Source: Candidatus Omnitrophota bacterium
GTDB taxonomy: Bacteria; Omnitrophota; Gorgyraeia; Zapsychrales; Zapsychraceae
Reading direction: 5' to 3'
Assembly: GCA_016214285.1 (NCBI GenBank)
Contig: JACROV010000079.1
Coordinates: forward strand, 6,855 to 70,854
DNA: 64,000 nucleotides
Shown here piece after piece: positions 8,820 through 31,632 of this stretch. The notes beneath the pieces are model-generated. The model saw nothing but the letters and a program-made list of their open reading frames with translations. It made no database searches and was not told the DNA's origin. Made by a program: the position numbers and the translations under genes. Within the stretch, counting starts at the first letter, position 1, and each line of letters starts with the position of its first letter.

Positions 8820-8970
8820 GTGGATTTTGAAGTTCGAAATTCGAAGCACGAAATACGAAACAAATCAAAAATCCTAAATTCTATTGTCCTAAACCAACTG
8901 TTTAGAATTTTAGATATTCGAATTTAAGTATTGTTTCGAATTTCGATATTCGTGCTTCGGATTTTAACAG
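8820..8970. repeat. Intergenic MITE-like palindromic element, family A copy 1
   Basis: Terminal inverted repeats ttcgaagcacgaaatacgaaacaa / ttgtttcgaatttcgatattcgtgcttcgg around an AT-rich core. Homologous copies at 25481-25650 and 31455-31632. Confidence 0.7.
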
Positions 8971-8996
8971 GTCATATTTAAGAGCCAGGAGCAGGT

Positions 8997-9677
8997 ATGA
9001 CGTTTCTTTTTACGCTGGTTTTGATTTTCTTCGCGTGGGCGCTGATCATTTTTGTCTTTTTCAAGGCGGAGATCCAGTCCACCAAAGAGAGGGATCCGGC
9101 CGCCCGCGGGATCGCGGAGATCGTGCTTTTATACCCGGGGCTTCACGCGGTCGTGGCTCATCGGATCAATCATTTCCTCTGGAAAATGAAGATACCGCTT
9201 TTACCCAGGGCATTGTCCCAGTTGACGCGTTTTTTTACCGGTATCGAGATCCACCCTGGAGCAGAGATCGGCAAGGGACTTTTTATCGACCACGGCATGG
9301 GTGTCGTCGTCGGCGAAACGGCCATTGTCGGGGATAACGTTACGCTGTTTCAGGGGGTCACCCTGGGAGGCACGGGCAAGGAAACCGGCAAGCGGCATCC
9401 GACGATCGGCAATAATGTGGTCATCGGCGCCGGCGCCAAGGTCTTGGGCAATATTACCGTCGGCGGCAACAGTTACGTCGGTGCCAACGCGGTCATTATC
9501 CGGGACGTTCCCTCCAACGCCACGGTGGTCGGTGTCCCGGGCCATGTCACCAAACAAGAAGGTAAAAAGATGGATCTGCTGATGGACCATGTCCATACTT
9601 CGGATCCGGTGATGCAGCATATGAAAGATCTGGTCCGGCGGGTCAAGACGCTCGAAGATAAAACCCCGGGGCAATAG
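8997..9677 (+). CDS. cysE: Serine O-acetyltransferase
   Basis: SATase N-terminal region plus a hexapeptide-repeat left-handed beta-helix. Confidence 0.85.
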
Positions 9678-9699
9678 ATCTGTTCTTCATTGATCCCTC

Positions 9700-11106
9700 A
9701 TGACGATTCGCATTGTTAATTCTCTTACCAGGAGAAAAGAAGAGCTTGTGCCGTGTGACGGCAAGATCATCCGCATGTACTCCTGCGGGGTGACGGTCTA
9801 TGACCGCTGCCATATCGGGCACGCCCGCAGTCTGTATGTCTTTGATGTTATCCGGCGCTATCTTAAGTATCGCGGCTTTGATGTCAAGTTTGTCCGCAAC
9901 ATCACCGATGTCGACGATAAAATCATCAATAAAGCCCGGGAAACCGGGAGAAAGTTCGTGGATGTCGTCGCGGAAAATATCGCGGCCTATCAGGCGGACT
10001 TGAAAAGCCTCGGTATCCCGCCGGCGGATATCGAGCCGCGCGCCACCGAAAATATCCCGGAGATGATCAAGGACATCCAGGGCTTGATCCAGAAAGGATT
10101 TGCTTATACGGCCAATGGCGAGGTGTATTACGATGTGCGCAAATTCAAGGATTACGGAAAGCTCTCCGGTCAGAGTGTTGATAAAATGATGGAAGCGGTA
10201 CGCATCGAGCAGGATCAGAAAAAAAAGGACCCGCTCGATTTCGCCCTTTGGAAGAAATCCAAGGAGGATGAACCGTTCTGGGAAAGTCCGTGGGGCCGCG
10301 GAAGGCCGGGCTGGCACATCGAATGTTCCTGCATGAGCCTAAAGCATCTTAAGTGCGAGACTTTGGACATTCACGCCGGCGGGCGCGATCTGATCTTTCC
10401 CCATCATGAAAACGAGATCGCCCAGGCGCAGCCGCTGACGAACAAACCTTTCGCCAGATGCTGGATCCATCACGGGCTTTTGACCATCCAGGGACAGAAA
10501 ATGGCCAAGTCGCTGGGGAATTTCATCACTGTGCAGGACGCGCTTAAAAAATACAGCGTCGACCAGCTGAAGATGTTCTTTCTTTCCTCGCATTACGCCA
10601 GCCCCATTGATTTTTCCGGGGAAAAAATGCGGGAAACGCAAAAGGCGCTGGACCGGTTCGATGTCCTGTTCTGGAAAGCGTATCAGATGCTCGAAGGCAA
10701 AAAGCCGGTCGATCCCATCGAGGCCGAATTCATCACCAAACACCGCAATGAATTTATCGTTGCGATGGACGATGATTTTAATACGCCGATGGCACTGGGG
10801 TGTTTGTTTAATTTTATTAATGATACCAATAAATTCATCGATACGGCGCCCAAAGACGGCAATTATTTCGAAATTATTTTTCGGGCGGTCGACACGATCG
10901 AGAGTTTGTCCCGGAATATCCTGGGGTTGTTTCTTAAAGAGAAAGACAACGATCTGACGCAAGAGCAAAAGACGCTCCTGCAGCAGCGCCTGGATGCCCG
11001 AAGACAGAAGAATTTTAAACGCTCGGATGAGATCCGTGATCTGTTGAAGGAAAATGGAGTGATTGTCGAGGATACCAAAGACGGGCAGGTGTGGCGGTGG
11101 GCATGA
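9700..11106 (+). CDS. cysS: Cysteine--tRNA ligase
   Basis: HIGH motif CHIGHARS, KMSKS variant KMAKS and cysteine ligands. Confidence 0.95.
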   Translation: MTIRIVNSLTRRKEELVPCDGKIIRMYSCGVTVYDRCHIGHARSLYVFDVIRRYLKYRGFDVKFVRNITDVDDKIINKARETGRKFVDVVAENIAAYQADLKSLGIPPADIEPRATENIPEMIKDIQGLIQKGFAYTANGEVYYDVRKFKDYGKLSGQSVDKMMEAVRIEQDQKKKDPLDFALWKKSKEDEPFWESPWGRGRPGWHIECSCMSLKHLKCETLDIHAGGRDLIFPHHENEIAQAQPLTNKPFARCWIHHGLLTIQGQKMAKSLGNFITVQDALKKYSVDQLKMFFLSSHYASPIDFSGEKMRETQKALDRFDVLFWKAYQMLEGKKPVDPIEAEFITKHRNEFIVAMDDDFNTPMALGCLFNFINDTNKFIDTAPKDGNYFEIIFRAVDTIESLSRNILGLFLKEKDNDLTQEQKTLLQQRLDARRQKNFKRSDEIRDLLKENGVIVEDTKDGQVWRWA

Positions 11107-11720
11107 AAGGAAGATTTATCACGTTTGAAGGTTCCGAAGGCTCGGGGAAAAGCACCCAGATCGAGCTGGTTTGCCGCTATTTGAAAAGAAAAAGACGGAA
11201 AGTCCTGTTCCTGCGGGAGCCGGGCGCGACCAGGATCAGCGAGCAGATCCGCCGCATCCTTTTGGACGTCGGCAGCGCGGGCATGAGCGACGAATGCGAG
11301 ACGCTTTTGTACATGGCGGCGCGGGCGCAACTGGTACGCGAGAAGATCATCCCGGCGTTGCGTAAAGGGAGGGTCGTTCTTTGCGACCGTTTTCTGGATT
11401 CCACACTCGCTTATCAAGGGTACGGCAATGGCGTGGATATCGCTTGGATCAAACAGCTTGGCCGGTTCGCGACCGGCGGCGTCACTCCGGATCTGACGCT
11501 TTTTTTTGACATCGACGCGAAGAAAGGCTTGGGGCGGATCGTCCGTCCCAAAGACCGCATCGAGCGCCGCAGTGTTCTGTATCATAACCGTGTGCGCGCG
11601 GGATATCGGGCTCTGGCCCGGCAGGAACCGAAGCGGATCAAGTTGATCAAAGTCAACGGCGGTAAGGCAGAGATCCATTTGGTCGTGCGCGATCACATCG
11701 ATGGTTTATTGGGTTTATAG
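11103..11720 (+). CDS. tmk: Thymidylate kinase
   Basis: P-loop FEGSEGSGKST and LID region. The ATG at 11103 overlaps the cysS stop (ATGA); the listed ORF begins at 11091. Confidence 0.9.
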   Translation: MKGRFITFEGSEGSGKSTQIELVCRYLKRKRRKVLFLREPGATRISEQIRRILLDVGSAGMSDECETLLYMAARAQLVREKIIPALRKGRVVLCDRFLDSTLAYQGYGNGVDIAWIKQLGRFATGGVTPDLTLFFDIDAKKGLGRIVRPKDRIERRSVLYHNRVRAGYRALARQEPKRIKLIKVNGGKAEIHLVVRDHIDGLLGL

Positions 11721-11724
11721 TTTG

Positions 11725-12068
11725 ATTTCGGCTGAACCTTTCACCGGAACGCTTGTCCCGCCCTCCCGCAGGGAGCCTACTCGGCCACCGAGGCGGGACT
11801 ACGCTCGACAAAAGCCCCTCGCTCGCCAAGGTGGTTGAGCGAAGGGCTCCATGGCCGCTCGTGGCTTTTAACGTCCGGCTCAAGGTTCATCCTCAATCCT
11901 TTTGTCAAGAAGTTGAGTAATGATAAGTTGCCCGAATTAAAGGTCACCGGTCAATATCCAATCCGAAGTGAACTTTGATGTGAACGAAGGATTGGATATT
12001 GACAACGACGGCGAATCATGTCGTAAGGGTTTAATCGCCGGAATGTTTATCTGTCTAACTTGGGTTAA
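11725..12068 (+). repeat. ~340-nt structured intergenic element, family C copy 1 (candidate ncRNA or repeat)
   Basis: Homologous to 36040-36350 at about 70% identity, with conserved blocks and a compensatory change in one hairpin (atatccaatcc/ggattggatat versus ataccaatcc/ggattggtat). Confidence 0.55.
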
Positions 12069-12070
12069 TC

Positions 12071-13051
12071 ATGATTACAAGTGCAATTGAAATTAATCAG
12101 TCGGTTTTAAAACGTTTCGCCGCCCTTGAGAAGAAGGGGTTTTTGGCGCACGCGTATCTTTTCACGGGCCCGGCGCATATCGGCAAGGCCGCCACCGCGT
12201 TTGCCGTTGCCAAGTTCTTGAACTGTGAGAACAAAAAAGAGGGCGGTGAGGGGTGTTCTTGCGACCGCTGCCCGTCGTGCCTGAGGATCAATTCGGGCAA
12301 CCACCCGGATATCCATGTCCTTAAAGTGGCGCCCGGCGAGTCGATCAAGATTGACGCGGTCCGTGAACTATTGGCCCGGATCAGGCTGCGGCCTTTTATG
12401 GCGGCAAAAAAGATCTTTATCGTTCATAACATTGAAGACCTCACCACCGAAGGGGCCAACGCTTTGTTGAAGACCCTGGAAGAGCCGTCGGTCAACAGTC
12501 TGCTCATTCTGACAACGGCGGTCCCTGAACGGGTTTTGGAAACGGTCAAATCCCGTTGTCACGTTATGCCATTTGTCCCGGTCTCCCAAGCAGCGCTTGC
12601 GGCCCGGCTGGTTCAGTACTATGATGAGGACAAAGACCAGGCTCACTTTCTGGCCTATTTTGCCGAAGGGTGCCTGGGCAAGGCGCGCCGGCTTAAAGAA
12701 GACGGTCTGTGCGCGGCCAAGGATGAGATCATTGACCGGTATATTTTGGGGCGCGAACGTGAGGCGCTCGTCAAAACAATTGGAGCCGACAAGGCGAAAA
12801 CAAGAGAATTTTTGGATGTCCTCTTAAGCTGGGTCAGGGACTGCCTGCTGATCCAGTCGGGAGTAGAGGATGCCCGGCTGGTGCATGCCGGACGGATCCG
12901 GGAACTACAGAACTTTCAACGGCGGTTTTCTTTCGAAGAGCTGGCCGGCATTCACCGTGAAACGATCAACGCGTGCCGGTTACTCGTCGAAAATCTTAAC
13001 GTGAAAATACCGCTGTCGATCCTGGGAGAAATGCTATACCGCGTTCCATAA
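12071..13051 (+). CDS. holB: DNA polymerase III delta' subunit
   Basis: AAA+ P-loop GPAHIGKA and zinc module CSCDRCPSC. Synteny with tmk and yaaT. Confidence 0.9.
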   Translation: MITSAIEINQSVLKRFAALEKKGFLAHAYLFTGPAHIGKAATAFAVAKFLNCENKKEGGEGCSCDRCPSCLRINSGNHPDIHVLKVAPGESIKIDAVRELLARIRLRPFMAAKKIFIVHNIEDLTTEGANALLKTLEEPSVNSLLILTTAVPERVLETVKSRCHVMPFVPVSQAALAARLVQYYDEDKDQAHFLAYFAEGCLGKARRLKEDGLCAAKDEIIDRYILGREREALVKTIGADKAKTREFLDVLLSWVRDCLLIQSGVEDARLVHAGRIRELQNFQRRFSFEELAGIHRETINACRLLVENLNVKIPLSILGEMLYRVP

Positions 13052-13114
13052 ATTTCTAATCAGGGGAACGCGGTATTATCCCGAGACCCTTGATGTTCAA
13101 GATCGAGGAGGCGA

Positions 13115-13924: not shown

Positions 13925-13961
13925 ATTGGTTCTTAAACGACTTTTATAAAAAGCCACAGGG

Positions 13962-13990
13962 CCCGCTCCGTGGCTTTCTCTTATTCGCCG
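13962..13990 (+). terminator. Rho-independent terminator after yaaT
   Basis: Hairpin gccacagggcccgctccgtggc followed by a T-rich tract. Confidence 0.6.
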
Positions 13991-14075
13991 CAGAGGCGGC
14001 GAATAACTCCAGCGTTTGATTCATTCCGAAATATCAATATTCCCGGGATGAATCAGCTGGAGTGACCACCCTTGT
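13990..14075 (+). repeat. Post-terminator repeat element, family B copy 1
   Basis: ttattcgccgcagaggcggcgaataa hairpin followed by a conserved ...ccgaaatatcaa...cccgggatgaatcagctgg block. A near-identical unit lies at 28707-28795. Confidence 0.6.
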
Positions 14076-14087: not shown

Positions 14088-14113
14088 AAATTTGCTACAT
14101 GTAAGGAAGGTTA

Positions 14114-14281
14114 ATGGAAATTCTGAAGTGGTTTAAGATGTTTTTCCGTGAAAATAATAGGCGTCGATTATTGCGGCAGCAGTTAGAGAAAGAATCCAAG
14201 GTAACTCGGGCAGCCTCGCTGGAAGTACTCCACGAGATGGAAGAACTGGATGACGATTTGAACTGCGAATTCGGTCATTAA
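14114..14281 (+). CDS. Small hypothetical protein (56 aa)
   Basis: ATG with ribosome-binding site taaggaagg. Its 3' end overlaps the first GAATT hairpin. Below the 60-aa cutoff of the ORF track. Confidence 0.3.
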   Translation: MEILKWFKMFFRENNRRRLLRQQLEKESKVTRAASLEVLHEMEELDDDLNCEFGH

Positions 14282-14472
14282 TGACCGAATTTGAATTGCC
14301 CGGGCGACAGGTGAATTCAGTCGGTGCCGACTGAATTTGGACTGCCCAAGCGACAGGCAAATTCAACCGACATCGGCTGAATTCGAATTGCCCGAGACGT
14401 GAGATGAATTCCGCAGACGTCTGCGGAATTGCCCGCGGCAGGGACGCGGGGAAAAGCGGCGGAGGGAAAAGG
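14267..14472. repeat. Array D1: four GAATT-flanked 25-nt palindromic hairpins separated by (t)gaattgcccgggcgacag units, ending in a G-rich tract
   Basis: Hairpins gaattcggtcattaatgaccgaatt, gaattcagtcggtgccgactgaatt, aattcaaccgacatcggctgaatt and gaattccgcagacgtctgcggaatt. The terminal gaattgcccgcggcagggacgcggggaaaagcggcggagggaaaagg recurs at 16578 and 18011. Confidence 0.75.
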
Positions 14473-14760: not shown

Positions 14761-15142
14761 GTATCTGCTCATCGGCGGTTATGCCGTCGGCTATTACGGT
14801 TATCCACGCGCAACAGCTGATATGGATATATGGATCGCTATCAGCAAAGAGAACGCGAAGAAGATGACAGAAGCAATTAAGGATTTCGGCATGAAGGCTC
14901 CCGCTTTAAACGAGGGTATTTTTCTTGAGCCCGGGAAAATAATCAGGATGGGATATCCGCCGATAAGAATAGAAGTGCTGACAGAAATATCAGGAGTAAA
15001 TTTTAAACAATGCTATGCCCGGCGCGAAGAAATAAAAATTGATGGAATAAAAGTAAAAATGATATCATTGGGGGATCTTTTGAAAAATAAAAAGGCGAGT
15101 GGCCGGCATAAAGATCTAAATGATCTGGAAAATTTAAGATAA
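14687..15142 (+). CDS. Pol-beta superfamily nucleotidyltransferase (MNT/DUF6036-like), candidate TA component
   Basis: hG[GS]x9-13DxD NTase motif in LLIGGYAVGYYGYPRATADMDIWI. AT-rich relative to the genome. Confidence 0.6.
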   Translation: MYMDMPILPQDFRVFLKLLNSKRIEYLLIGGYAVGYYGYPRATADMDIWIAISKENAKKMTEAIKDFGMKAPALNEGIFLEPGKIIRMGYPPIRIEVLTEISGVNFKQCYARREEIKIDGIKVKMISLGDLLKNKKASGRHKDLNDLENLR

Positions 15143-15204: not shown

Positions 15205-15297
15205 GTGACGAAACTAAATGAGAAATATGTCTTCGAAATTTTACGTGACAACCCCGATTTACTACGTCAACGATAACCCGCGCATCGGGCACGCGTA
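15205..15297 (+). pseudogene. Displaced, diverged 5' fragment of metG ([26 protein letters not shown])
   Basis: About 85% nucleotide identity to the true metG start at 18634 ([26 protein letters not shown]). It ends in a stop after 30 codons. Confidence 0.7.
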
Positions 15298-15372: not shown

Positions 15373-16605
15373 TGCGATTCGTTCATCGTCTCATCGAAAA
15401 TGAACTTTTAAAGGCCGCCCGCAATTTCCCGGCGATTCTCTTTGACCGGCCCGCGCCGGGCCGGGAAAACAACGCTTTTAAAAAAGTTGTTCCCCAAGGC
15501 CTCGTATTATCTCCTGGAAGACCCCGACATTGTTGCCCGCGTCCGGACTGATCCGCGTTCTTTTCTTGAAGAGATCAGGCTGCCGGTCATTCTCGATGAA
15601 ATCCAGAACGTCCCCGAACTGTTCAATTACGTGCGCGCGCGGATTGATAACGCTCCACAGAAGTTCGGACAGTGGTTTCTGACCGGGTCCCAGGAAGCCG
15701 GGCTCATGAAGGGGGTGACGGAGTCCATGGCTGGCCGCGTGGCCGTGTTTGAGCTTTTGCCGTTTTCGATAGGTGAGACATCCGGAGTTTCCATTTTTCG
15801 CGGAGGATTCCCGGAGGTTCTGGCCAGACCCCGGGCGGGCGATATCTGGTTCCGGTCGTACCTTCAGACGTATCTGGAAAGAGACGTGCGCGCGGTCAGC
15901 TCGATCAAGAGCGTGACGACATTCCGGCGTTTTTTGTCTCTGTTGGCCAGCCAGTGCGGGCAGATCCTGAACAAGACCGATCTCGCGGCCCCTTTGGGGG
16001 TGAGCGTGCCCACGTTGAGCGAATGGATCCATATCCTTGAGACCACGGGTCAGATCATCCTCGTGCCGCCTTTTTATGAAAATTTCGGCAAACGGATCAT
16101 CAAATCCCCAAAACTCTATTTTGTGGACTCCGGGTTGGCGTGTCATCTTTTGAATATCTCTTCCGAGAAAATGCTTTTTTCTTCGCCGTTTCTGGGAGCT
16201 GTCTTTGAAGGGTTCATCGCCGCGGAAATCATCAAATTCCAGATAAATACCGGCAAGAGAAAAGAGCTGTATTATTTTCGGGACCAGCAGGGCCTGGAAG
16301 TTGATTTTTTGATTCCGCAGGGGGACCGCCGGCTCATCCTTCTGGAGGCGGAGGCAACCAGGACGCTTCGGCCGCAGATGGCGGAACCCCTCAAACGGCT
16401 GGCGCACAATATCGCGCGTTACGAGGTTGAGCAGTGGGTTGTCTGTCCTGATTCCCAAAAAGGAGAACCCCTGCGCGCCTTAAGCCCGGGCACAAAGGCC
16501 CTTTCCGTGAAGGGGCTGTTGAGTGCTTTGAAGGGGCAGCTTTCCGGAACACCCGGTGCTGTCAAGGGCCGGACGGCGAATTCCACCGGCGCCGGTGGAA
16601 TTTGA
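15373..16605 (+). pseudogene. AAA_14/DUF4143-family ATPase, frameshifted near 15440
   Basis: Frame 1 from the ATG at 15373 gives MRFVHRLIENELLKAARNFPAILFDRPAPG. The P-loop TGPRRAGKTTLL continues in another frame (the listed ORF starts at TTG 15442). One extra base at about 15437-15440 separates the two frames. The C-terminus runs into the hairpin array. Confidence 0.6.
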
Positions 16606-16716
16606 ATTGCCCGGGCGACAGACGAATTGAGTCGGTGCCGACTGAATTGTAGTGTAAATTTGAATTCGTCCCGACGTATCGTCGGGACGAATTGCCCGCG
16701 GCAGGGGGGGGGGGAT
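16578..16716. repeat. Array D2: three GAATT-flanked palindromic hairpins plus a gaattgcccgcggcagg(g)n tract
   Basis: gaattccaccggcgccggtggaatt, gaattgagtcggtgccgactgaatt and gaattcgtcccgacgtatcgtcgggacgaatt, then gcccgcggcagggggggggg. Confidence 0.75.
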
Positions 16717-17963: not shown

Positions 17964-17972
17964 TGCTTAACC

Positions 17973-17997
17973 CCCGGCAACACCGGGTGTTGCCGGG
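17973..17997. repeat. GGCAACACCGGGTGTTGCC palindromic element, family E copy 1 (intergenic)
   Basis: Perfect 25-bp palindrome cccggcaacaccgggtgttgccggg. Other copies at 24383-24403 (inside alr) and 61947-61975 (inside lnt). Confidence 0.8.
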
Positions 17998-18010
17998 GCC
18001 GGGCGGACAG

Positions 18011-18122
18011 CGAATTCAGTCGACGTCGACTGAATTTGAATTCGTCAGATATCTGACGAATTCGCCAGCTAGCTGGCGAATTGCCCGCGGCAGGGGTGCT
18101 GGAAAGCGGCAGAGGGGAAAGG
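18011..18122. repeat. Array D3: two GAATT-flanked palindromic hairpins plus a gaattgcccgcggcagggg... G-rich tract
   Basis: cgaattcagtcgacgtcgactgaatt and gaattcgtcagatatctgacgaattc, then gccagctagctggcgaattgcccgcggcaggggtgctggaaagcggcagaggggaaagg. Confidence 0.75.
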
Positions 18123-18169: not shown

Positions 18170-18637
18170 ATGAAGAAGCCAGTAATTCAGTTAGAGCGTA
18201 CAGGTTGTGGTATCGCGAGCGTGGCTGCGATCGTCGGTTTCTCTTACCTGAAAATGAAGTCGATCGCGAATTCTTTGGGTGTCTTTGCGCATGACGAGAC
18301 TTTGTGGTCGAACCCGTCTCACGTGCGGAAGTTGTTGAGGCGTTTCGGCGTGAGAGCTGGCTCACGTGAAATACCTTTCCGCTCTTGGGAGACGCTTCCT
18401 GATCTTGCACTGTTGTCGATCAAGTGGCATCTTGAGAAAGGCCGTCCTTATTGGCATTGGGTAGTGTTCGTTCGAGAAAATGGGCGATCCTATGTGCTGG
18501 ATTCAAAAAAGCGTCTGCGTAGCAACGTCAGAACGGACTTTGGGCGTATGAAGCCAAAATGGTATATCCCGGTCATTGATGTCCAGCAATGCGTTCAATG
18601 CGATCGCGCCGGCAATAATAGACAGATAGAATCATGA
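18170..18637 (+). CDS. Peptidase C39-like (papain-fold) domain protein
   Basis: Catalytic-Cys context QLERTGCGIASVAAI and His context WHWVVFV. The real start MKKPV is about codon 70 of listed ORF 17963..18637, whose N-terminus is repeat DNA. The coordinate may be off by one. Confidence 0.55.
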   Translation: MKKPVIQLERTGCGIASVAAIVGFSYLKMKSIANSLGVFAHDETLWSNPSHVRKLLRRFGVRAGSREIPFRSWETLPDLALLSIKWHLEKGRPYWHWVVFVRENGRSYVLDSKKRLRSNVRTDFGRMKPKWYIPVIDVQQCVQCDRAGNNRQIES

Positions 18638-20154
18638 AGACTCCATTTTACGTCACAACTCCTATCTATTACGTCAACGATAATCCACACATCGGGCACG
18701 CGTACACGACGATCCTTGCTGATGTTTTGGCGCGTTACCACCGTAACGAGGGCGATGAAGTCTTTTTCCTGACGGGTCTGGATGAGCACGGGCAAAAGGT
18801 CCAGCAGGCGGCGCAGAAGCGTGGAGTTCCCGAGCAGCAGCATTGCGACGAGCTCGCGCCGCGGTTTTCCGACCTTTGGAAGAAGCTCGAGATCCAGAAC
18901 GACGATTTTATCCGCACCACCGAGCCGCGGCATATCAAGGCCGTCCAGGCCGCGCTGCAGAAAGTGTATGACGCGGGGGACGTTTATACGGATGAATACG
19001 AAGGCTGGTACTCGGTCGCTGAGGAACGGTTCATCACCGATACCGAGAAAGATTCCGGACATTTCCGCGACGTTAAAAAACTAAAGGAGCGCAATTATTT
19101 CTTCAAGATGAGCAAATATCAGCAAAAGCTCATCGACTATATCAACGCCCATCCGGAATTTATCCAGCCCGAACATCGCAAGAATGAGGTCTTGGGATTT
19201 TTACGCCAGCCGCTGGGGGACCTGTGCATCTCGCGTCCCAAATCGCGCATGGGCTGGGGCATCGAGATTCCTTTTGATAAAGAGTATGTCACCTATGTCT
19301 GGTTCGACGCGCTGATCAATTACATCACGGCATCGGGATATTTGGTAGATGAGAAAGAATTCAAGAAGTGGTGGCCGGCGTCGGTCCATTTGATCGGCAA
19401 AGACATTTTGACGACCCACGCGGTGTACTGGCCGACGATGCTTTTTTCATTGGGGCTGCCGCTGCCGAAAACCATCTTTGCCCACGGCTGGTGGCTCATC
19501 GGCGAAACGAAAATGAGCAAGTCGTTGGGGAATGTCGTTGATCCTTTAAGTTTGGTTGACCAATACGGCGTTGACCCGGTGCGCTATTACCTGATGCGCG
19601 AGATGGTCCTGGGGCAGGACGCCAATTTCACCATGGAATCGTTCATCAAACGCTACAACAGCGACCTGGCGAATGATTTCGGGAATCTTTTGAATCGTGT
19701 CAGTGGTCTTATTGGAAAATATTTTGACGGCTGCGTTCCCAAAGAAGGTCAGGCGTGGGCGCCGGATAAGGAGATCAGGAAGGTTGCCGACGGGCTGGCC
19801 AAGAATATCGAAGAGTTGATCAATGGCATGCGCGTCCACGAGGCCCTTGAACAGGTTTTGGTGTTGATCCGCAACACCAACGTGTATATGGAACACCAGG
19901 CGCCTTGGAAAGAGGCGAAAGAGAATTTGGAACGGGCGGGAACGATCCTTTATACAGCAACGGAGGCGCTGCGCGTCAGCGCGATTCTGCTTCTTCCGGT
20001 TATGCCCGCGAAGGCGAATACGGTTTTAGAGATTTTAGGAGCGGTGGGGACAGAGCCGTGCTGGGGGCAGCTCAAGGCCGGGGCAAAATTACAAAGCCAC
20101 GACGCGCTTTTCCCGCGATTAGACGCTGAAGGCAAGGTTATAACTAAGAGTTGA
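18634..20154 (+). CDS. metG: Methionine--tRNA ligase (short form)
   Basis: HIGH motif (PHIGHAYT), KMSKS, connective-peptide zinc-knuckle region and an anticodon-binding domain. No C-terminal EMAP domain. Confidence 0.95.
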   Translation: [506 protein letters not shown]

Positions 20155-20246: not shown

Positions 20247-21329
20247 ATGTCTATTCAAACGATCAGTTGGGTCAACGGTCACGTCAAGCTCATCGACCAG
20301 ACCAAACTTCCCGGGAAATTGGTTTACATCCATTGCCGCGACGTCAAGACACTGTGGCAGGCGATCCGGCGTTTGAGTGTCCGCGGCGCGCCGGCCCTTG
20401 GCGTGGCGGCGGCGTTCGGAGTTTTACTGGGGATCAAATCTTTTTCCGGTTCCGGTTCCCGTTCCAGGAACCGGAACGACCGGAAACATTTTAGCAAGCA
20501 TGTGGATCAGATAAGCGATTATATCGCCGCCTCGCGCCCGACGGCGGTGAATCTTTTTAATGCTCTGGCGAGGATGAAACAGGTTGTCCATCGTCACCCT
20601 GACGCAAGCGTTGGCGGACTGAGAAATCTTTTGAAAAAAGAGGCGCTGGCCATTTATGAGGAAGACCGCAAGCTTTGCCGGCGGATGGGAACCTTTGGCG
20701 CGCGCCTTATCCCGTCGGGTGCCAACCTTTTGACCATCTGCAATGCCGGCGCGCTGGCGGCCGTCGATTACGGCACCGCGTTAGGTGTCATGTACAGCGC
20801 CAAGGCGAAGGGCAAGAAATTCCAGGTTTACGCGTGCGAAACGCGGCCGCTTTTGCAGGGCGCGCGGCTGACGGTGTGGGAACTCTTGCGTTCGGGCATT
20901 GATACGACGTTGATTTGCGACAACATGGCCGCAACGTTGATGAAGCAGGGCAAGGTTGACGGGGTTTTTACCGGCGCTGACCGCATCGCCGCTAACGGAG
21001 ACACGGCAAACAAAATCGGGACGTACAACCTGGCCGTTTTGGCCAAACATCACCGGATCCCTTTTTACGTGGTCGCTCCCCGGTCGAGTTTTGATCTCTC
21101 CATCAAAAACGGCCGGCAGATCCCGATCGAACAAAGAAGCAAGGAAGAGGTCCTGGGTTTTGGCGGCTGCCCGACGGCGCCGCGGCAGGTGAAGGTGTAC
21201 AATCCCGCCTTTGATGTGACGGACAACAGGTTGATTGCGGCGATTGTGACGGAGAAAGGAATCATCCGCCAGCCGTTTGTGAAAAATATAAAGAGGGTCT
21301 TTGAACGGAGAAACCATTCCGGCGAATAA
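20247..21329 (+). CDS. mtnA: S-methyl-5-thioribose-1-phosphate isomerase
   Basis: eIF-2B/MtnA family motifs (ETRPLLQGARLTVWEL, DRIAANGDTANKIGTY). Contains a low-complexity insert SGSGSRSRNRNDRK encoded by a palindrome at 20443-20486. Confidence 0.85.
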   Translation: MSIQTISWVNGHVKLIDQTKLPGKLVYIHCRDVKTLWQAIRRLSVRGAPALGVAAAFGVLLGIKSFSGSGSRSRNRNDRKHFSKHVDQISDYIAASRPTAVNLFNALARMKQVVHRHPDASVGGLRNLLKKEALAIYEEDRKLCRRMGTFGARLIPSGANLLTICNAGALAAVDYGTALGVMYSAKAKGKKFQVYACETRPLLQGARLTVWELLRSGIDTTLICDNMAATLMKQGKVDGVFTGADRIAANGDTANKIGTYNLAVLAKHHRIPFYVVAPRSSFDLSIKNGRQIPIEQRSKEEVLGFGGCPTAPRQVKVYNPAFDVTDNRLIAAIVTEKGIIRQPFVKNIKRVFERRNHSGE

Positions 21330-21557
21330 GCCTTTCCGCCCAGATCCGCCATCGTTGTCATCCCGATCTCTCGTTCACTAAAACGTTCACTCAAGATTGG
21401 GATGACCGGTAACCTTTTGTTCGGGACAGTTTAGGCGTGTGGTATCAGGCGGGTGACCCGGAAGCGGGTTCCCTGCCGCCCGCAGCGATAAGCGAGGACG
21501 GGAGGGTGCCGCAGGGGCAGGACCCGCCGGTGGATTGAGAATAGTTTTATTAAAATT

Positions 21558-24294: not shown

Positions 24295-25446
24295 ATGAAT
24301 AAACATTTAACTTGGGCACAGATTGATTTAAGCGCCATCCGGCATAATTTTCGGGTGCTACAACGGCTGGCGGGAATACCCACGGCAACACCCGGTGTTG
24401 CCGCGGGTTCGGGGAAAGTGAAAATCCTCGCCGTCATCAAGGCGGACGCGTACGGCCACGGGATGCTGGTCGCGAAGGTTCTCGTTAAAGAGAAGGTGGA
24501 TTTTATCGGGCTATCGAATCTGACCGAAGGGATCGCTTTACGCGAGGCAGGCATCAAAACGCCGGTCCTTTTGTTTGAAACGACCCTCGCTGAACAAGCC
24601 CAAAATATTATTGACTACGAGCTGACCCCGACGATATGCACGCATGAATTGGCCGCGGCGTTGAACCGCTACGCGCAGAAACGTAAGCGCGTGGTGGATA
24701 TCCACGTCAAGGTCGATACCGGCATGGGGCGCCTGGGCGTCTGGCATGAAGAGGCTTTGGATTTTATAAAGAAATTAAGCCGTCTGCGGAATTTGCGGGT
24801 CCAGGGGATCTGCACCCATTTCCCGTCGGCGGATACGGACCAGGCGTTCACGCGCCGTCAGATCAGAGATCTGGAGAATTTAGTTTCGCGGCTTAAAGCC
24901 GGAGGGCTTCATGCTCTTTACGTCCACGCGGCCAACAGCATGGGGCTGGTTGGATATCCGAACAAGATTTTGAATCTCGCGCGGCCGGGATTGATGCTCT
25001 ACGGCCTGTATCCGCGTCCGGGATTGGAAGAGAAAGTCAATTTGCGCCCGGCGATGAGTATCCATTCGAAGATCATCTTTTTAAAGCGCATTGAAAAGGG
25101 AAGAAGCATCAGTTACGGCCGGACGTTTATCGCCTCGCGGCCTATGACGGTCGCGACCTTGCCGATCGGTTACAGCGATGGATATCTGCGCGGACTCTCC
25201 GGCAAGGCGGACGTTCTTGTCGGCGGCCAGCGTTGTCCGGTTCTGGGCCGTGTCACCATGGACCAGATCGTTGTTGATGTTTCCAAGATTAAAAATCCTC
25301 GGCTGGGGATGCCGGTTGTCATTTTAGGAAAGCAAGGGAAAGAGGAAGTCTGCGCTTATGAGCTCGCCCAACTCGTCCGTACGATCAATTACGAGATCGT
25401 CTGCAGCCTCGGGAGCCGCTTGCCGAGGTTGTATAAAAAAGCTTGA
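24295..25446 (+). CDS. alr: Alanine racemase
   Basis: PLP-lysine motif VIKADAYGHG and a C-terminal beta domain. Carries an in-frame 21-bp palindrome insertion (TATPGVA) at 24383-24403. Confidence 0.9.
   Translation: MNKHLTWAQIDLSAIRHNFRVLQRLAGIPTATPGVAAGSGKVKILAVIKADAYGHGMLVAKVLVKEKVDFIGLSNLTEGIALREAGIKTPVLLFETTLAEQAQNIIDYELTPTICTHELAAALNRYAQKRKRVVDIHVKVDTGMGRLGVWHEEALDFIKKLSRLRNLRVQGICTHFPSADTDQAFTRRQIRDLENLVSRLKAGGLHALYVHAANSMGLVGYPNKILNLARPGLMLYGLYPRPGLEEKVNLRPAMSIHSKIIFLKRIEKGRSISYGRTFIASRPMTVATLPIGYSDGYLRGLSGKADVLVGGQRCPVLGRVTMDQIVVDVSKIKNPRLGMPVVILGKQGKEEVCAYELAQLVRTINYEIVCSLGSRLPRLYKKA
24383..24403. repeat. Family E palindrome copy 2, in-frame inside alr
   Basis: cggcaacacccggtgttgccg encodes ..TATPGVA.. 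. The alr N-terminal linker is about 8 aa longer than in E. coli Alr at this position. Confidence 0.75.
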
Positions 25447-25480
25447 TATTTCGATAGTATGCTATAATCTCTCCCGTCAA

Positions 25481-27307
<1,827 letters not shown>

Positions 27308-27315
27308 ATGGCCTT

Positions 27316-27380
27316 AAGGGCAGTAAGGGGCAGTAAGGGCAGTAAGGGAACGGTGTGTTAGGAACGGTGTGTTAGGAACG
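27316..27380 (+). repeat. Tandem direct repeats (gggcagtaag x3, then aacggtgtgttagg x2 plus a partial unit)
   Basis: aagggcagtaaggggcagtaagggcagtaaggg aacggtgtgttagg aacggtgtgttagg aacggtgttgaca. The last unit overlaps the -35 box. Confidence 0.7.
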
Positions 27381-27383
27381 GTG

Positions 27384-27412
27384 TTGACAACGGGTAGCAG
27401 AGCGTATATACT
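27384..27412 (+). promoter_or_regulatory. Near-consensus sigma70 promoter (TTGACA-N17-TATACT)
   Basis: TTGACA at 27384-27389, a 17-nt spacer, TATACT at 27407-27412. Confidence 0.6.
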
Positions 27413-27418
27413 TATATT

Positions 27419-27508
27419 GTTTTAGTAAATATTTGAAAGTGGCGGCGTAGCTACTACAATTCAAAAGGCAATGGAGCCCTGAACCGGAAACGGTTCAGGG
27501 CTTTTTCT
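27419..27508 (+). ncRNA. Candidate ~90-nt sRNA or transcription attenuator, promoter to intrinsic terminator
   Basis: Predicted transcription start about 7 nt after the -10 box. Terminator hairpin agccctgaaccggaaacggttcagggct plus TTTTTCT at 27476-27508. The PAS-LuxR CDS begins about 35 nt downstream. Confidence 0.4.
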
Positions 27509-27542
27509 GCGTCTTTTGGCGCAGGCAGATAACTTTCAACCC

Positions 27543-28391
27543 ATGACGATGAACACACGACAAGATCTTTTGATGGCCGATGAAGCGTTCTTGCGGGATT
27601 TCTTCGAGAACTCGCCGGTTGGGTTTCATGTCTTCGGGCCGGATAAGATCATCAGGGCGGTCAACCAGGCCGAGCTGGATATCCTGGGATACCGACGCGA
27701 GGAGATCATCGGACGCAAGAAATGGTCGGATTTGATCGTCCCCGAACAGCGCGCGCAGTTCGAGCGGCATTGGAAGGACATATCCACCATCGGCAGGGTG
27801 ACCAATTTGCGTTATACGTTGCAGACCAAGACAGGTGCCAAGGTCGATGTGATCCTCAATGCCTCGGCGCGTTTTAACCGCGCCGGTGAATTGCTCAATA
27901 CCCGTGGGACCATTTTGGATGTCCGGCATCTGAAGCAGGCGCGCCGTTCCGGGAAATCCGGCGTGCGCGAGAAAACGGTGCTGGAACAACACAATCAGGC
28001 GCTTAGCGTCCTGCTGGCCAATATTGAAGTCGAGAAGGAAACCCTGAAGAAAAATATCATGACCAATTTGGAACAGCTGATCCTGCCGGTTCTAAGAAAA
28101 CTTAAACGCCGCGGGAGCCAGCTGGACCAGCGCTATTTGGAACTTTTGGAGCGGAATTTCCTGGGGCTGACTTCCTCGCTCGGCATGAAATTGGTCAATC
28201 CGCGGTGGAAGTTGACTGCACGCGAGATCGAGGTCTGCGGCATGATCAAAAACGGCCTGGCCACCAAAACGATCGCCGACATGCTGTGCGTGTCGCAGCG
28301 CACCGTCGAGCACCACCGCAACCATATCCGTAAAAAACTTGGGGTAACCCGAATCGGGATCAATCTTAACAGCTATTTACAATCATTGTGA
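27543..28391 (+). CDS. PAS domain / LuxR-type HTH transcriptional regulator
   Basis: N-terminal PAS domain and C-terminal LuxR HTH (LTAREIEVCGMIKNGLATKTIADMLCVSQRTVEHHRNHIRKKLG). The start is uncertain; the listed ORF begins at TTG 27516. Confidence 0.75.
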   Translation: MTMNTRQDLLMADEAFLRDFFENSPVGFHVFGPDKIIRAVNQAELDILGYRREEIIGRKKWSDLIVPEQRAQFERHWKDISTIGRVTNLRYTLQTKTGAKVDVILNASARFNRAGELLNTRGTILDVRHLKQARRSGKSGVREKTVLEQHNQALSVLLANIEVEKETLKKNIMTNLEQLILPVLRKLKRRGSQLDQRYLELLERNFLGLTSSLGMKLVNPRWKLTAREIEVCGMIKNGLATKTIADMLCVSQRTVEHHRNHIRKKLGVTRIGINLNSYLQSL

Positions 28392-28674
28392 AGGGCTACC
28401 TATGGAACTAAGTATTTTATACGTGGTTAGCCGGAAACGTAAATTGCAGCGGATGATCATCCTCGTCGAGACCGCGAGCGATCACAGGCCCCCGGTGGGC
28501 GATTGGGGGCGCAGGATCGTATTCCTGTCGACGGAGAACGTGAGATTTGTCGGCATCGAGAAATAGGTATTGACGCTCACGCGGGATGGGGTAAACTTGA
28601 AACGTAAGATCTTTGAGGGACGGCAAGGAAGCTTTCCTTCAAGAGAAGTTCGCCGGAGAAACTTTAGGACACAG

Positions 28675-28708
28675 AAGCCCTGAACCAGAACATGGTCCAG
28701 GGTTTTTT
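28675..28708 (+). terminator. Rho-independent terminator
   Basis: gccctgaaccagaacatggtccaggg followed by TTTTTT. Confidence 0.65.
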
Positions 28709-28795
28709 ATTCGCCGCAGTGGCGGCGAATAACCCCCCAGCGCTTGATTTATCCCGAAATATCAAGATCTCCGGGATGAATCAGCTGGGGTGAGC
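28707..28795 (+). repeat. Post-terminator repeat element, family B copy 2
   Basis: ttattcgccgcagtggcggcgaataacccccc agcgcttgatttatcccgaaatatcaagatctccgggatgaatcagctgggg. Matches 13990-14075. Confidence 0.6.
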
Positions 28796-28887
28796 ATATA
28801 GGCGCAGAAGCCCAACATCTGTAATCAGATGTCGGGCTTTTTTTGATCCATTTACCTTCATATCGCATAAACAGAAAAATGGATCAA

Positions 28888-28930
28888 CCCCCCGCGTTTC
28901 GTTTTGTCCTATCGGACAAAACGGCGGGGG
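28888..28930 (+). promoter_or_regulatory. Strong palindrome in the nirB leader (cccccgc..TTTTGTCCtatcGGACAAAA..gcggggg)
   Basis: 8-4-8 perfect inner palindrome with GC-rich outer arms. It ends about 20 nt before the nirB ATG and has no T-run. Confidence 0.45.
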
Positions 28931-28949
28931 TGACCGAGGGGGAATAAAG

Positions 28950-31448
28950 ATGCAAAAAAGACTGGTTGTCATCGGAAACGGTATGGCCGGAGCGCGGGTG
29001 GTCGAAGAGATCCTCAAGCGCGCGCCGGGGGTCTTTGAGATCGTCATGTTCGGCGCCGAGCCTTACGGCAATTACAACCGGATCCTGTTAAGTAACGTGC
29101 TCAATCAATCCCAAAAGCCGGAAGAGATCTTTCTCAATTCCCTAACGTGGTATCAGGGAAATAACATCCGTCTTCATGCCGGGGTCAAGGCGGTCAAGAT
29201 CGATGCCGGGCGCCGCTGTATCATCGGGTATCCTCTGCCGGCGGATGTCAATGCCTATGATTTTAGCGACGGCCTTTTTGACAAAGACGCCACCGTCATA
29301 GAGCCCTATGATAACGTTATTATTGCCACCGGATCGCGCCCTTTTGTCCCGCCGATCGAAGGCCAGGGCCTGCCCGGGGTGTTTTTGTTCCGCACCATCG
29401 ACGATTGCCGGCGTATCGCCGAATTCGCTCATGGCTGCCGCAAGGCCGCGGTCATCGGAGGAGGCTTGCTGGGGCTGGAAGCCGCGCGCGGATTATTGAC
29501 GCATAATGTGGACGTGACCGTCGTGGAAGCGGGCGGGCAGTTGATGAATGTCCAGCTTGATGAAGAATCCGGACAGATGCTCAGGCGCACCATGGAGGCG
29601 ATGGGGATCACGGTTGTCGTTAATGGCCGGACAAAGCGTATCCGTGAAGAGAATGGCAAGATCACCGGACTGGAATTTCAGGATGGCACTTCAATCGATG
29701 CCGATATGGTCGTCATCAGCGCCGGCATCCGGCCGATCACCGAGATCGCGCAGGTTTCCGGGATCACCGTCAACAAAGGTATTGTCTGCGACGACCACAT
29801 GCGCACCAATGTCCCGGAGATCTTCGCTTTGGGGGAATGCGTGGAGCATCGCGGGAAGATTTATGGCCTGGTGGACCCGATCTGGGAACAGGCCAGGGTG
29901 CTGGCGGATGTCATCACGGGGACCAACTCCCAGGCGCGCTATGAAGGATCGAAAACCGCGACGAAGCTGAAGGTCATGGGCGTCGAACTTGTTTCCATTG
30001 GCGCCAAAGACGCGGAAAAGCCCTCCGATGAACTGGTCGTTTATCGCGAACTCAAGCGTAATATTTACAAAAAAGTGGTCATCCGCGATGAGAAGATCCT
30101 TGGCGCGATCCTTTTGGGCGACACTGAATACGCGGACACGCTCATGCGGATGTTCCTGGCGGAGCAAAAGATCCCCGGGAACCCTTCGGAACTTTTGTTC
30201 GGCACCGTGACGGGAAGCGCTCTGGTCAACGCCGCGGACCTGCCCGACAACGCGCAGATCTGCAATTGTAACGGCGTGTGCAAAAAAGAGATCGTCGATG
30301 CCATCGTAAACGACAATTGCCAAAGTGTTTCCGCGGTCGGCGCCAAAACAAAGGCGGGCAAAGGCTGCGGTTCCTGCCGCAGCATGATCGCCCAGATCAT
30401 CGAATCGTGCGTGGGGAAGGTCTCTTATGACGCGTCGGAGCATTATTACGTGCCGGGGATCCCTCTAGAAAAATCCCAGCTGGTCGCGCAGATCCTGACG
30501 AAGAAATTGAGATCGGTCAGCGCCGTGTTCGCGGCCCTGGCCGACGGCAAAGAGGACGCGGACAGCAAGGTCGGTCTAGCGTCACTTTTGAAAACCCTTT
30601 GGCCGGGCGAGTATGAAGACGAGCGCGACGCGCGGTTCATCAACGACCGCGTGCACGCCAATATCCAAAGAGACGGGACGTTCTCCGTCATCCCCCGCGT
30701 TTACGCCGGCGTAACCACACCGGATGAACTGATGCGCATTGCCCAAGCCGCCGTTAAATATCAGGTCAAAATGGTCAAGATCACCGGCGGCCAGCGGATC
30801 GATTTGTTGGGGATCCAAAAGGCGGACCTGCCGGCGATCTGGAAAGATCTGGGGATGCCCAGCGGCCACGCGTACACGAAAGCCTTTCGCACCTGCAAGA
30901 GTTGCGTGGGCACGGATTTCTGCCGTTTTGGCCTGGGGGATTCCATCCAGCTCGCGCAAAACATTGAACGCCGTTTTCAGGGGATCGAATCGCCGCACAA
31001 GATGAAGCTGGCCACCGCGGGCTGTCCGCGGAATTGTTCGGAGGCCTATGTCAAAGACATCGGCGCGGTCGCCGTCGGCGAAGATAAATGGGAAATTTAT
31101 ATCGGCGGCGCGGCCGGTGGAACGGTGCGTAAAGGCGACTTTCTTTACACGGCGCAAGGCCATGAGGAAACCGTCAAGGTCGTCGGGAGGTTCATGCAAT
31201 ATTACCGCGAACATGCCAAATATCTGGAGCGTACTTACGGGTTCGTGGAGCGCGTGGGCATCGATGTTTTAAAGAACATTTTGGTGGAGGATTCCCTGGG
31301 GATCTGCGCCCGGCTCGATGCCAGAATTCAGGAGGCCGTGGACGCCTACCGGGATCCCTGGAAGGAAGCGGAGGTGCAGGCATATGAGCGCCAGTTTGAG
31401 GGGCCGCGCTTGGTGGAAGTCTTGAGGGAAGCGGAGAATAATGGTTAA
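28950..31448 (+). CDS. nirB: NAD(P)H-dependent nitrite reductase large subunit
   Basis: N-terminal FAD/NAD Rossmann fold (VVIGNGMAG), a BFD-like [2Fe-2S] module and a sirohaem/[4Fe-4S] domain. 832 aa. Confidence 0.9.
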   Translation: MQKRLVVIGNGMAGARVVEEILKRAPGVFEIVMFGAEPYGNYNRILLSNVLNQSQKPEEIFLNSLTWYQGNNIRLHAGVKAVKIDAGRRCIIGYPLPADVNAYDFSDGLFDKDATVIEPYDNVIIATGSRPFVPPIEGQGLPGVFLFRTIDDCRRIAEFAHGCRKAAVIGGGLLGLEAARGLLTHNVDVTVVEAGGQLMNVQLDEESGQMLRRTMEAMGITVVVNGRTKRIREENGKITGLEFQDGTSIDADMVVISAGIRPITEIAQVSGITVNKGIVCDDHMRTNVPEIFALGECVEHRGKIYGLVDPIWEQARVLADVITGTNSQARYEGSKTATKLKVMGVELVSIGAKDAEKPSDELVVYRELKRNIYKKVVIRDEKILGAILLGDTEYADTLMRMFLAEQKIPGNPSELLFGTVTGSALVNAADLPDNAQICNCNGVCKKEIVDAIVNDNCQSVSAVGAKTKAGKGCGSCRSMIAQIIESCVGKVSYDASEHYYVPGIPLEKSQLVAQILTKKLRSVSAVFAALADGKEDADSKVGLASLLKTLWPGEYEDERDARFINDRVHANIQRDGTFSVIPRVYAGVTTPDELMRIAQAAVKYQVKMVKITGGQRIDLLGIQKADLPAIWKDLGMPSGHAYTKAFRTCKSCVGTDFCRFGLGDSIQLAQNIERRFQGIESPHKMKLATAGCPRNCSEAYVKDIGAVAVGEDKWEIYIGGAAGGTVRKGDFLYTAQGHEETVKVVGRFMQYYREHAKYLERTYGFVERVGIDVLKNILVEDSLGICARLDARIQEAVDAYRDPWKEAEVQAYERQFEGPRLVEVLREAENNG

Positions 31449-31454
31449 ATCGCT

Positions 31455-31632
31455 TCAAAATTCGAAGCACGAAATCCGAAATTCGAAACAATACCAAAAC
31501 CCGAATGATCTAAATCTGAAACAGAGGGTTTCAATCGTTGTTGGAATTTAGCATTTAGAATTTGTTTCGTGTTTTCCGCCAAAGGCGGATCGGCCTCTGG
31601 CTGACGAGCTTCGGATTTCGAATTTAATTAAA
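31455..31632. repeat. MITE-like element, family A copy 3
   Basis: ttcgaagcacgaaatccgaaattcgaaacaa ... ttgtttcgtgttttccgccaaaggcggatcggcctctggctgacgagcttcggatttcgaattt. Confidence 0.7.

Follow-up and report, generated by a model that had tools for sequence, protein, structure and literature searches.

Heptad Hairpins in Gene Spacers of an Omnitrophota Bacterium as Probable ORF-Less Forms of an IVS-Type Cassette

Three Hairpin Elements Between Housekeeping Genes

The window analyzed here is a stretch of 64,000 nt from a Candidatus Omnitrophota bacterium (GenBank assembly GCA_016214285.1, contig JACROV010000079.1, positions 6,855 to 70,854), which contains three AT-rich hairpin elements of 137–168 nt in spacers between protein-coding genes. 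Copy 1 (8829..8965, minus strand) lies between ispF and a cysE-like hexapeptide-acyltransferase gene, copy 2 (25479..25643, plus strand) between alr and an ABC-F gene, and copy 3 (31458..31625, plus strand) between nirB and nirD. None of them holds an open reading frame (ORF), and they probably represent short forms (minis) of a heptad hairpin cassette of the intervening sequence (IVS) type, the full form of which carries a gene for an Avd-like protein of ~121 aa (PF05635/TIGR02436) in its loop. All three palindromes had been noticed in a preliminary description of this DNA at about the same positions, and a repeat search joins them as one family (3 copies over 83 nt). The names given there to the flanking genes are also borne out, in that the Pfam domains of the syntenic genes in relatives fit YgbB/ispF and hexapeptide acyltransferase, alanine racemase and ABC-F ATPase, and NirB and Rieske NirD.

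The elements had been described as ~30-bp terminal inverted repeats around an AT-rich core. The inverted ends are real, but the description understated the structure: the imperfect palindrome spans the whole length of each copy rather than the ends alone, and the arms are made of tandem AAATYCG repeats (heptads) with a marker heptad, AAGCACG or AATATCG. The autocorrelation of the copies at a lag of 7 nt amounts to 0.42–0.51 compared to a background of 0.25, with echoes at 14 and 21 nt. RNA folding, which had been suggested as a check, gives long hairpins for all three copies, such that a long stem formed by the complementary termini encloses the rest of the element, with −39.8 kcal/mol for copy 1 (z = −3.8 versus shuffles), −62.8 kcal/mol for copy 2 (z = −6.4) and −56.1 kcal/mol for copy 3 (z = −3.7). 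Copies 2 and 3 are 78% identical over the left 83 nt and 90% over the right 91 nt in direct orientation. Copy 1 matches copy 2 best as the reverse complement (80% over 110 nt) and is therefore inverted relative to copies 2 and 3; the heptad GAAGCAC/GTGCTTC is present in both of its arms. The exact 12-mer GAAGCACGAAAT occurs three times in the window, once in each copy, and is by itself not enriched when mismatches are allowed (11 found versus 8.3 expected). A motif-cluster scan of the window revealed no further copy of the family, and gave one weak three-motif cluster at 50929–51009.

Filled and Empty Sites in Relatives

The best matches to the CysRS and ABC-F proteins of the host are from Omnitrophota, and the same gene pairs are found in these relatives with much shorter spacers. 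The spacer between ispF and the acyltransferase gene comprises 190 nt in the window and 2 nt in locus L121 (GCA_040960315.1, 85% CysRS identity), the alr/ABC-F spacer ~220 nt compared to 51 nt in L149 (97% ABC-F identity), L152 (96%) and L150 (93%), and the nirB/nirD spacer 194 nt compared to 10 nt in L149. Since the sites are empty in close relatives, all three copies are gains in the lineage of the window and arrived ORF-less; they are thus recent insertions of minis. In the alignments of the three filled sites with the empty ones no target-site duplication is seen, and a few junction bases differ from the empty site at each of the junctions. Likewise, visual inspection of ~90 boundaries in other genomes, where the fold-based boundary calls are noisy, revealed no such duplication. 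The duplications that the preliminary description had proposed to look for are therefore lacking, and together with the untidy junctions this argues against DDE-type transposition. As read from their sequences, some elements (e.g., L038 and L009) seem to have GC-rich inverted repeats on either side that clamp them, and these clamps, along with the untidy and duplication-free junctions, hint at insertion into hairpin loops.

These observations bear directly on the mechanism that had been suggested initially, namely that of a MITE (miniature inverted-repeat transposable element), a deletion derivative of an insertion sequence (IS) that is mobilized in trans by a DDE or HUH (IS200/IS605) transposase via its terminal inverted repeats. 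A MITE would account for the small size, the lack of coding capacity, the inverted ends, the many copies and the presence/absence polymorphism, and the known bacterial MITEs (Correia/NEMIS, RUP, Nezha) are likewise short, intergenic, non-autonomous relatives of a longer coding element, which can be co-transcribed with neighboring genes. The idea of a proliferated, non-autonomous element holds insofar as the family is dispersed, non-coding, inserted in short spacers and related to gene-bearing forms. The MITE mechanism, however, fits poorly with the absence of a target-site duplication and the altered junction bases, with a palindrome and a 7-nt periodicity that are not restricted to the termini, and with a single consensus that is found across phyla rather than in one species. 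Moreover, a cognate transposase with matching ends, as had been anticipated, did not emerge: the only transposase of the window is IS4/IS5-like, with unrelated terminal repeats (TACCAGTACTGTCCGGTTA), and the longer relatives with the same ends encode a PF05635 protein instead of a transposase (see below). A classical MITE is therefore considered very unlikely.

In one of the relatives (L150) the alr/ABC-F and nirB/nirD spacers carry insertions of a different kind (L150:7903-8000 and 15007-15135), one of which is a palindrome of CAAGGGT-type heptads, so that these two spacers seem to be repeatedly colonized by heptad elements of other flavors. In another Omnitrophota metagenome-assembled genome (MAG), a spacer of ~650 nt upstream of a cysE-like gene (L036:4300-4950) is full of heptamer arrays, which start with a AAATTCGAAGCACG arm and comprise the flavors CAAGCTG, CAGAAAA, GATACAA and TAGGACA in succession.

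Distribution of the AAATYCG Family

When the arm 19-mer CGAAGCACGAAATNCGAAA was used as a probe against 185,579 species, each represented by a single genome, it was found at at least 119 genome loci in ~11 phyla, comprising Planctomycetota, Desulfobacterota, many Patescibacteria/candidate phyla radiation (CPR) lineages, Omnitrophota, Aminicenantes, Chloroflexota, Armatimonadota, the Verrucomicrobia/Kiritimatiellia/Victivallales group, Binatia, Ignavibacteria and Proteobacteria. Several of these loci sit on megabase chromosomes. This clearly speaks against a family of only three copies that arose by local duplication, an outcome that the preliminary description had allowed for. By our estimate, ~17 matches to the 18 specified bases are expected by chance in the scanned DNA; despite this, nearly all of the listed matches share one common architecture. 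The left arm reads [AAATYCG]n-AAGCACG-AAATYCG-AAACAAN...CAAAAY and is followed by a variable center, and the right arm reads ...GTTTTG...ATTTGTTTCG-RATTTCG-ATATTCG (or TGCTTCG)-RATTTCG-RATTT. Among the matches listed, 101 elements have a matching right arm (with a few elements counted on both strands), and the arm ends are separated by 85–330 nt, mostly by 100–200 nt. The elements are often located a few bases from a stop codon or just 5' of a start codon, and lie between tandem genes (24 in the same and 19 in the opposite orientation), convergent genes (16) or divergent genes (6), and thus favor neither direction with respect to host transcription.

Phage carriage was considered as a vehicle for this spread and rejected, since only seven viral contigs contain the arm 19-mer, none contains the 30-nt block that is nested in copies 2 and 3 (see below), and no relative of the cassette ORF was found in viral contigs in a search with a single protein.

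The preliminary description had also considered a family of repetitive extragenic palindromic (REP) sequences, which, like the bacterial interspersed mosaic elements (BIMEs) built from them, would owe their persistence to a REP-associated tyrosine transposase (RAYT). In line with this, the palindromes are intergenic and face either way with respect to the neighboring genes. REPs are 20–40 nt long, GC-rich and species-specific. By contrast, the size of the window elements, their AT-richness and the cross-phylum spread contradict a REP family, and no RAYT-like ORF is present beside any of the examined elements or in the annotated parts of the window. The nested twin hairpin of 30 nt is GC-rich and looks more REP-like, but is a separate module. 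For these elements, a REP/BIME origin is hardly credible.

A further alternative is a cis-regulatory RNA of the host, such as a terminator, an attenuator or an mRNA stabilizer, which would be kept for its effect on the neighboring genes and would be compatible with an IVS-type origin. The hairpins are stable and the copies are close to stop codons and ribosome-binding sites; in particular, the ABC-F ribosome-binding site is the downstream neighbor of copy 2, and a TGnTATAAT-like motif is located 5' of it and also in the relatives, as judged by eye (the promoter scan made no call there). When positions 25300–25800 were scanned, no terminator was called on copy 2 and the single promoter-like call within it was weak and no better than chance, and the folds of the three copies have long, AU-rich stems in which the terminal U's are paired, leaving no free U-tract. 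The role as terminators that had been suggested finds no support here, and on the scan of copy 2 a promoter or terminator function was rejected. Furthermore, the flanking genes are unrelated across loci, and the sense strand has no folding advantage. Since the same operons lack the element in close relatives and the orientation is random, a regulatory origin is unlikely. Secondary effects on neighboring genes are possible.

Full-Length Cassettes Carry a PF05635 Gene

In three of the loci, from Patescibacteria (L113), Ignavibacteria (L056) and Pirellulales (L067), the arms flank or run into an ORF of ~120 aa. The ORF of L113 matches PF05635, named “23S rRNA-intervening sequence protein” (E = 6.6e-13), and those of L056 and L067 are close homologs of it, the latter also matching the NCBIfam family TIGR02436 (“four helix bundle protein”). 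The nearest solved structure by sequence is PDB 2RLD. The cassette protein has at least 7990 homologs at E ≤ 1e-10, most of them of ~121 aa and many at 70–98% identity. When loci were sampled by the protein only, without any criterion for the arms, five loci yielded three further independent cassette sites: one between leuC and leuD (shared by the two genomes of L129 and L130), one between groEL and dnaJ (L137) and one 3' of a PHP-domain gene (L144/L145, attributed to a Zixibacteria MAG). AAATYCG-type arms are present in all five. The 5' side of the cassettes reads ...CGAATATCGAAAYCGAAATCCGAAACAAnnnnnATGACC, and the 3' side, after the stop codon, nGTTTTG...ATTTGTTTCGRATTTCGATATTCGRATTTCGRATTT. 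In the metagenome and MAG forms that were fetched, the cassette ORFs are co-directional with the flanking operon genes. Many PF05635 matches are on very short contigs, suggesting that heptad elements are likely to break metagenome assemblies.

A multiple alignment of three cassettes, two minis of other phyla and the three window copies pairs the minis, including those of the window, with either end of the cassettes and leaves a gap in place of the ORF. A frequent inner motif of the minis, CGAATGACCAAAAYTCAAAAC, corresponds to the start codon and the first codons of the cassette gene in this alignment; AATGAYY is kept at the position of the cassette ATG in 36 of 97 minis, and copy 3 of the window has a degenerate remnant, CGAATGATC, where the start codon of the cassette sits. 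Decay of a cassette in place was considered for the leuC/leuD site and rejected, since no minis were found at this site in the sample. No reverse transcriptase is present among the called genes beside the cassettes, for which no systematic search was made.

Heptads Co-vary with the Protein Lineage

PF05635 genes next to heptad arrays are also present on plasmids of cultured bacteria. A tblastn search of PLSDB with the cassette ORF gave 20 records, mostly from cyanobacteria, of which 12 (L153–L164) were fetched, with Nostoc, Aulosira, Anabaena, Planktothrix, Pseudanabaena, Chlorohelix, Bernardetia and Chondrinema as hosts. At least 8 of the 12 PF05635 genes have tandem heptamers upstream and their complement downstream, with weaker arrays in the other four, and the heptads are GTCGGAR, GCAATTC, AAATTCA, AAAAGTA, ATGAAGG and AATCGTA/AATCCCC. 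Proteins from cassettes with the same heptad are 59–92% identical (mean 73%, n = 9 pairs), compared to an average of 40% for different heptads (n = 111 pairs), even within one host. Nostoc flagelliforme, for example, has a GCAATTC cassette and an AAATTCA cassette, the proteins of which share 55% identity, compared to 92% and 77% identity with those of same-heptad cassettes of other species. Similarly, the AAATYCG clade unites proteins of Planctomycetota, Zixibacteria and Patescibacteria at 59–75% identity. The heptad thus follows the protein lineage and not the host, indicating that arms and ORF travel across hosts as one unit. Several of the plasmid-borne PF05635 genes are situated between defense genes (cas2/cas1, DrmD/MmeI, helicase/methylase).

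The heptameric arms could also be seen as microsatellites that polymerase slippage and hairpin formation generated on the spot, without being a homologous mobile family. Heptameric repeats are over-represented in bacteria and slippage was proposed as the cause (PMC4692102), and the number of heptads varies between copies as well as between Coxiella strains. Slippage does not account for the non-repetitive markers that are common to the phyla (GAAGCAC, CGAAACAA and the remnant of the ATGACC start), for the presence or absence of whole units in relatives, or for the link to one protein clade. While slippage probably alters the length of the arms, it leaves their origin unexplained, and as the sole source of the elements it is highly improbable. 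The short tandemly repeated repetitive (STRR) sequences of cyanobacteria and the GGGGATT/GGGAATC repeats of Nostoc and Xanthomonas (PMC4692102) resemble the arms in being tandem 7-nt units, often arranged in inverted arrays, in operon spacers. They differ in the sequence of the heptad, and the terms “helix bundle” and “23S” have 0 occurrences in that study; the complement of GGGGATT forms the AATCCCC arrays that flank a PF05635 gene in Planktothrix.

Relation to rRNA Intervening Sequences

Ribosomal RNA IVSs and their S23p/PF05635 ORF have been known since ~1990. A direct link to the AAATYCG family is provided by a Saccharibacteria locus with an LSU rRNA (L041:3425-6545, assigned by Rfam), in which a heptad element of 179 nt replaces an 8-nt hairpin loop at LSU model positions ~152–179. 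We take these positions to be helix 9, where IVSs are known to occur. Near LSU model positions 300–400 there is another heptad element, and a third lies upstream of the rRNA gene. In Coxiella, the IVS is a stem-loop that is excised by RNase III and contains an S23p ORF of a family of IVS-encoded proteins, and tandem heptamers (GACAGAT), the number of which varies between strains, are located just 5' of the start codon (PMC4990558). Excision by RNase III has been shown for rRNA IVSs, the origin and mobility of which are unresolved (PMC4990558). PF05635 ORFs were also found inside insertions in CPR 16S and 23S rRNA genes (PMC11270868).

The elements and the rRNA IVSs of Leptospira, Coxiella, Salmonella and alpha-proteobacteria therefore have much in common: a long stem formed by complementary termini, an optional ORF of the PF05635 family, the existence of short ORF-less forms, and heptamers that adjoin the start of the ORF in Coxiella as in the cassettes, as well as a family member at the tip of a 23S helix in L041. 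They differ in that the window copies are placed in spacers of protein-coding genes, that the arms are a specific AAATYCG array common to ~11 phyla, and that excision by RNase III would apply here by analogy. Because the window copies lie between protein-coding genes and a family member resides in the L041 rRNA, they are called IVS-type elements rather than rRNA IVSs; as far as can be judged from the sequence, they do not differ in kind from the classical 23S rRNA IVS. A second likeness concerns the accessory protein Avd of diversity-generating retroelements (DGRs), which the PF05635 family, the Pfam most commonly associated with DGRs, is said to resemble (PMC10053308). By contrast to DGRs, the window copies are ORF-less and the called neighbors of the cassettes include no reverse transcriptase.

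Given that the ends are shared with PF05635 cassettes and the insertions occurred without duplication, the window copies are therefore probably ORF-less IVS-type cassettes and not transposase-driven MITEs or REPs. Several points weigh against this interpretation. The 64-kb window lacks a PF05635 gene, and no AAATYCG-armed cassette from an Omnitrophota genome was among those retrieved. The window copies contain little remnant of an ORF, the degenerate ATG motif being limited to copy 3. They are also no closer to each other (75–76% pairwise identity) than to copies from other phyla (76–77%), with all of these identities inflated by the low sequence complexity of the heptads; a recent intragenomic burst was rejected on these grounds. 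Fold energy shows no strand asymmetry, and neither does the balance of G-U and C-A mismatches. This holds for elements oriented by the marker heptad (53 versus 40) as well as by host transcription (24 versus 19, p = 0.35), and C-A mismatches (32) and T-G mismatches (21) are about equally common at the variable heptad position. Thus nothing shows selection specifically on the RNA, and strand-specific RNA selection was rejected with regard to both the marker heptad and host transcription. Finally, co-transcription with host genes and RNase III cleavage are inferred, the latter by analogy with the rRNA IVSs.

In this model, the element would be transcribed together with the host genes and would depend on host transcription, as suggested by the operon orientation of the ORF-bearing forms. 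The imperfect RNA stem of ~55–65 bp could then be cut by host RNase III, as in rRNA IVSs, which would make insertions tolerable in the tips of rRNA helices as well as in packed operons, and would separate the flanking cistrons. Copies without an ORF would have to rely on functions supplied in trans.

A Nested Twin-Hairpin Module

Copies 2 and 3 share an extra internal hairpin block, which the preliminary description had also noticed. The block is real, but its sequence is best read as that of a separate small dispersed module nested in the arm. In copy 2 it occupies 25593..25622 (plus strand; TCCGCCaaaGGCGGA followed by TCAGCCtctGGCTGA) between two right-arm heptads, and in copy 3 31575..31604 (plus strand) at the same position of the arm. 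According to the alignment, the module is exactly 30 nt long, consists of two tandem 15-nt hairpins (TCCGCCnnnGGCGGA and TCAGCCnnnGGCTGA) and is inserted between the native right-arm heptads CGTGCTT and CGAGATT. A 33-mer of the internal block occurs twice in the window, compared to 0 occurrences expected. The modules of copies 2 and 3 are identical at 29 of 30 positions, with a single A-to-G change that retains the pair as G-U, whereas the rest of the two copies is only ~76% identical. The module may descend from a common mini ancestor and have been conserved since, or it may have entered the same arm position on two occasions.

The module also exists outside such palindromes, namely 3' of a tRNA gene (L146/L147; L146:2477) and in an AT-rich intergenic region (L148:4077), and is found next to heptad-like sequence in a Binatia MAG (L061:7144). 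Across these unrelated genomes and contexts the stems are conserved and the loops vary. The copy number obtained with the module pattern TCCGCCNNNGGCGGATCRGCCNNNGGCTGA is underestimated, as the pattern used for metagenomes also demanded a following CGAG, which belongs to the native heptad. No Rfam family matches at gathering thresholds, with spurious microRNA-like matches only at E up to 10. A hammerhead or other self-cleaving ribozyme was considered for the motif CUGACGAG in the block, which spans the end of the second hairpin and the next native heptad CGAGATT, and was rejected, since no Rfam match was obtained and manual threading of the core failed. In 2008, Elhai and co-workers reportedly described Nostoc repeats that are small, dispersed and nested within other repeats; they offer an analogy in that a tiny hairpin module is found inside a larger repeat and in unrelated contexts. 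At L146:2277-2480 (identical in L147), the 3' end of the tRNA gene, GAGTCCCTCCTTGCCCACAAGAGAA, is repeated ~110 nt downstream and is directly followed by the 30-nt twin hairpin, which looks as if a very small element had integrated there and duplicated its attachment site.

Other Repeats of the Window

The IS4/IS5-like IS of the window (47300–48622) has 19-nt terminal inverted repeats and is located inside a type I restriction-modification locus. Its transposase gene (47316–48527, minus strand) encodes DUF4372 and DDE_Tnp_1 domains; the IS is placed between hsdM (45724–47223) and hsdS (49420–50607), and a Fic-domain gene lies between hsdR and hsdM.

A second repeat family consists of clustered, short, GAATT-bounded and GC-rich palindromes (14262–14453, 16573–16715 and 17972–18105) in a variable island with genes for a DUF4143 ATPase, a nucleotidyltransferase and HEPN proteins. 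This island is bracketed by a 60-nt duplication of 87% identity (15238–15297 and 18645–18704, ~3.4 kb apart), the second unit of which lies at the 5' end of an ORF (18634–20154) that is metG-like by synteny with L149. To judge from its arrangement, the duplication may be the trace of an insertion. A repeat of 48–58 nt (TATYGACAACGAYGGCGAATC...GGTTTAATCGCCGGAATG, 80–92% identity) occurs at 11997–12054, 21312–21360 (minus strand) and 36278–36335, in intergenic positions adjacent to gene starts. Rfam does not match it at gathering thresholds, and it could represent a small RNA motif or a site of regulation. Furthermore, a palindrome with a perfect stem of 26 nt (TTATTCGCCGCAGnGGCGGCGAATAA), followed by a 60-nt repeat (87% identity), is present at 13981–14068 and 28707–28796, with the second copy ~150 nt 5' of nirB, and a GC-rich palindrome of 27 nt (CCACGGCAACACCGGGTGTTGCCGTGG) is present in three copies (17972–17998, 24380–24406 and 61948–61974).

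Implications

Prior knowledge covers the IVSs, the PF05635 ORF that they carry and the heptamers of Coxiella. In the open-access literature we found no account of an AAATYCG repeat family whose cassettes and minis recur between genes in many phyla, no co-variation of the heptad sequence with the protein lineage and, apart from the Coxiella IVS paper, no indication that inverted heptamer arrays generally flank PF05635 genes. An ordinary-looking “MITE” is thereby placed in the IVS family, the origin, mobility and function of which lack an explanation (PMC4990558). One cassette with a near-identical consensus colonizes mRNA spacers and rRNA in ~11 phyla including CPR, and its ORF-less minis were inserted as such, being absent in relatives at 96–97% protein identity. 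Heptamer arrays are common beside PF05635 genes, and the heptad co-varies with the lineage of the protein.

We tentatively suggest a wider possibility, to which we give a limited chance of being correct, namely that heptad hairpin and Avd-like four-helix-bundle protein constitute a pan-bacterial mobile cassette system. The protein would recognize the heptad arms specific for its own lineage and, perhaps aided in trans by a reverse transcriptase or some other enzyme of the host, would move cassettes and minis alike to intergenic sites or to the loops of hairpins, and excision by RNase III would keep the insertions harmless. If this is true, many unexplained heptameric repeats, such as STRR and GGGGATT, as well as the rRNA IVSs would be footprints of one system. 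The co-varying heptads offer a testable handle on the binding target of the Avd-like protein, on the origin of heptamer repeats and on a possible spread of hairpins that is independent of transposition.

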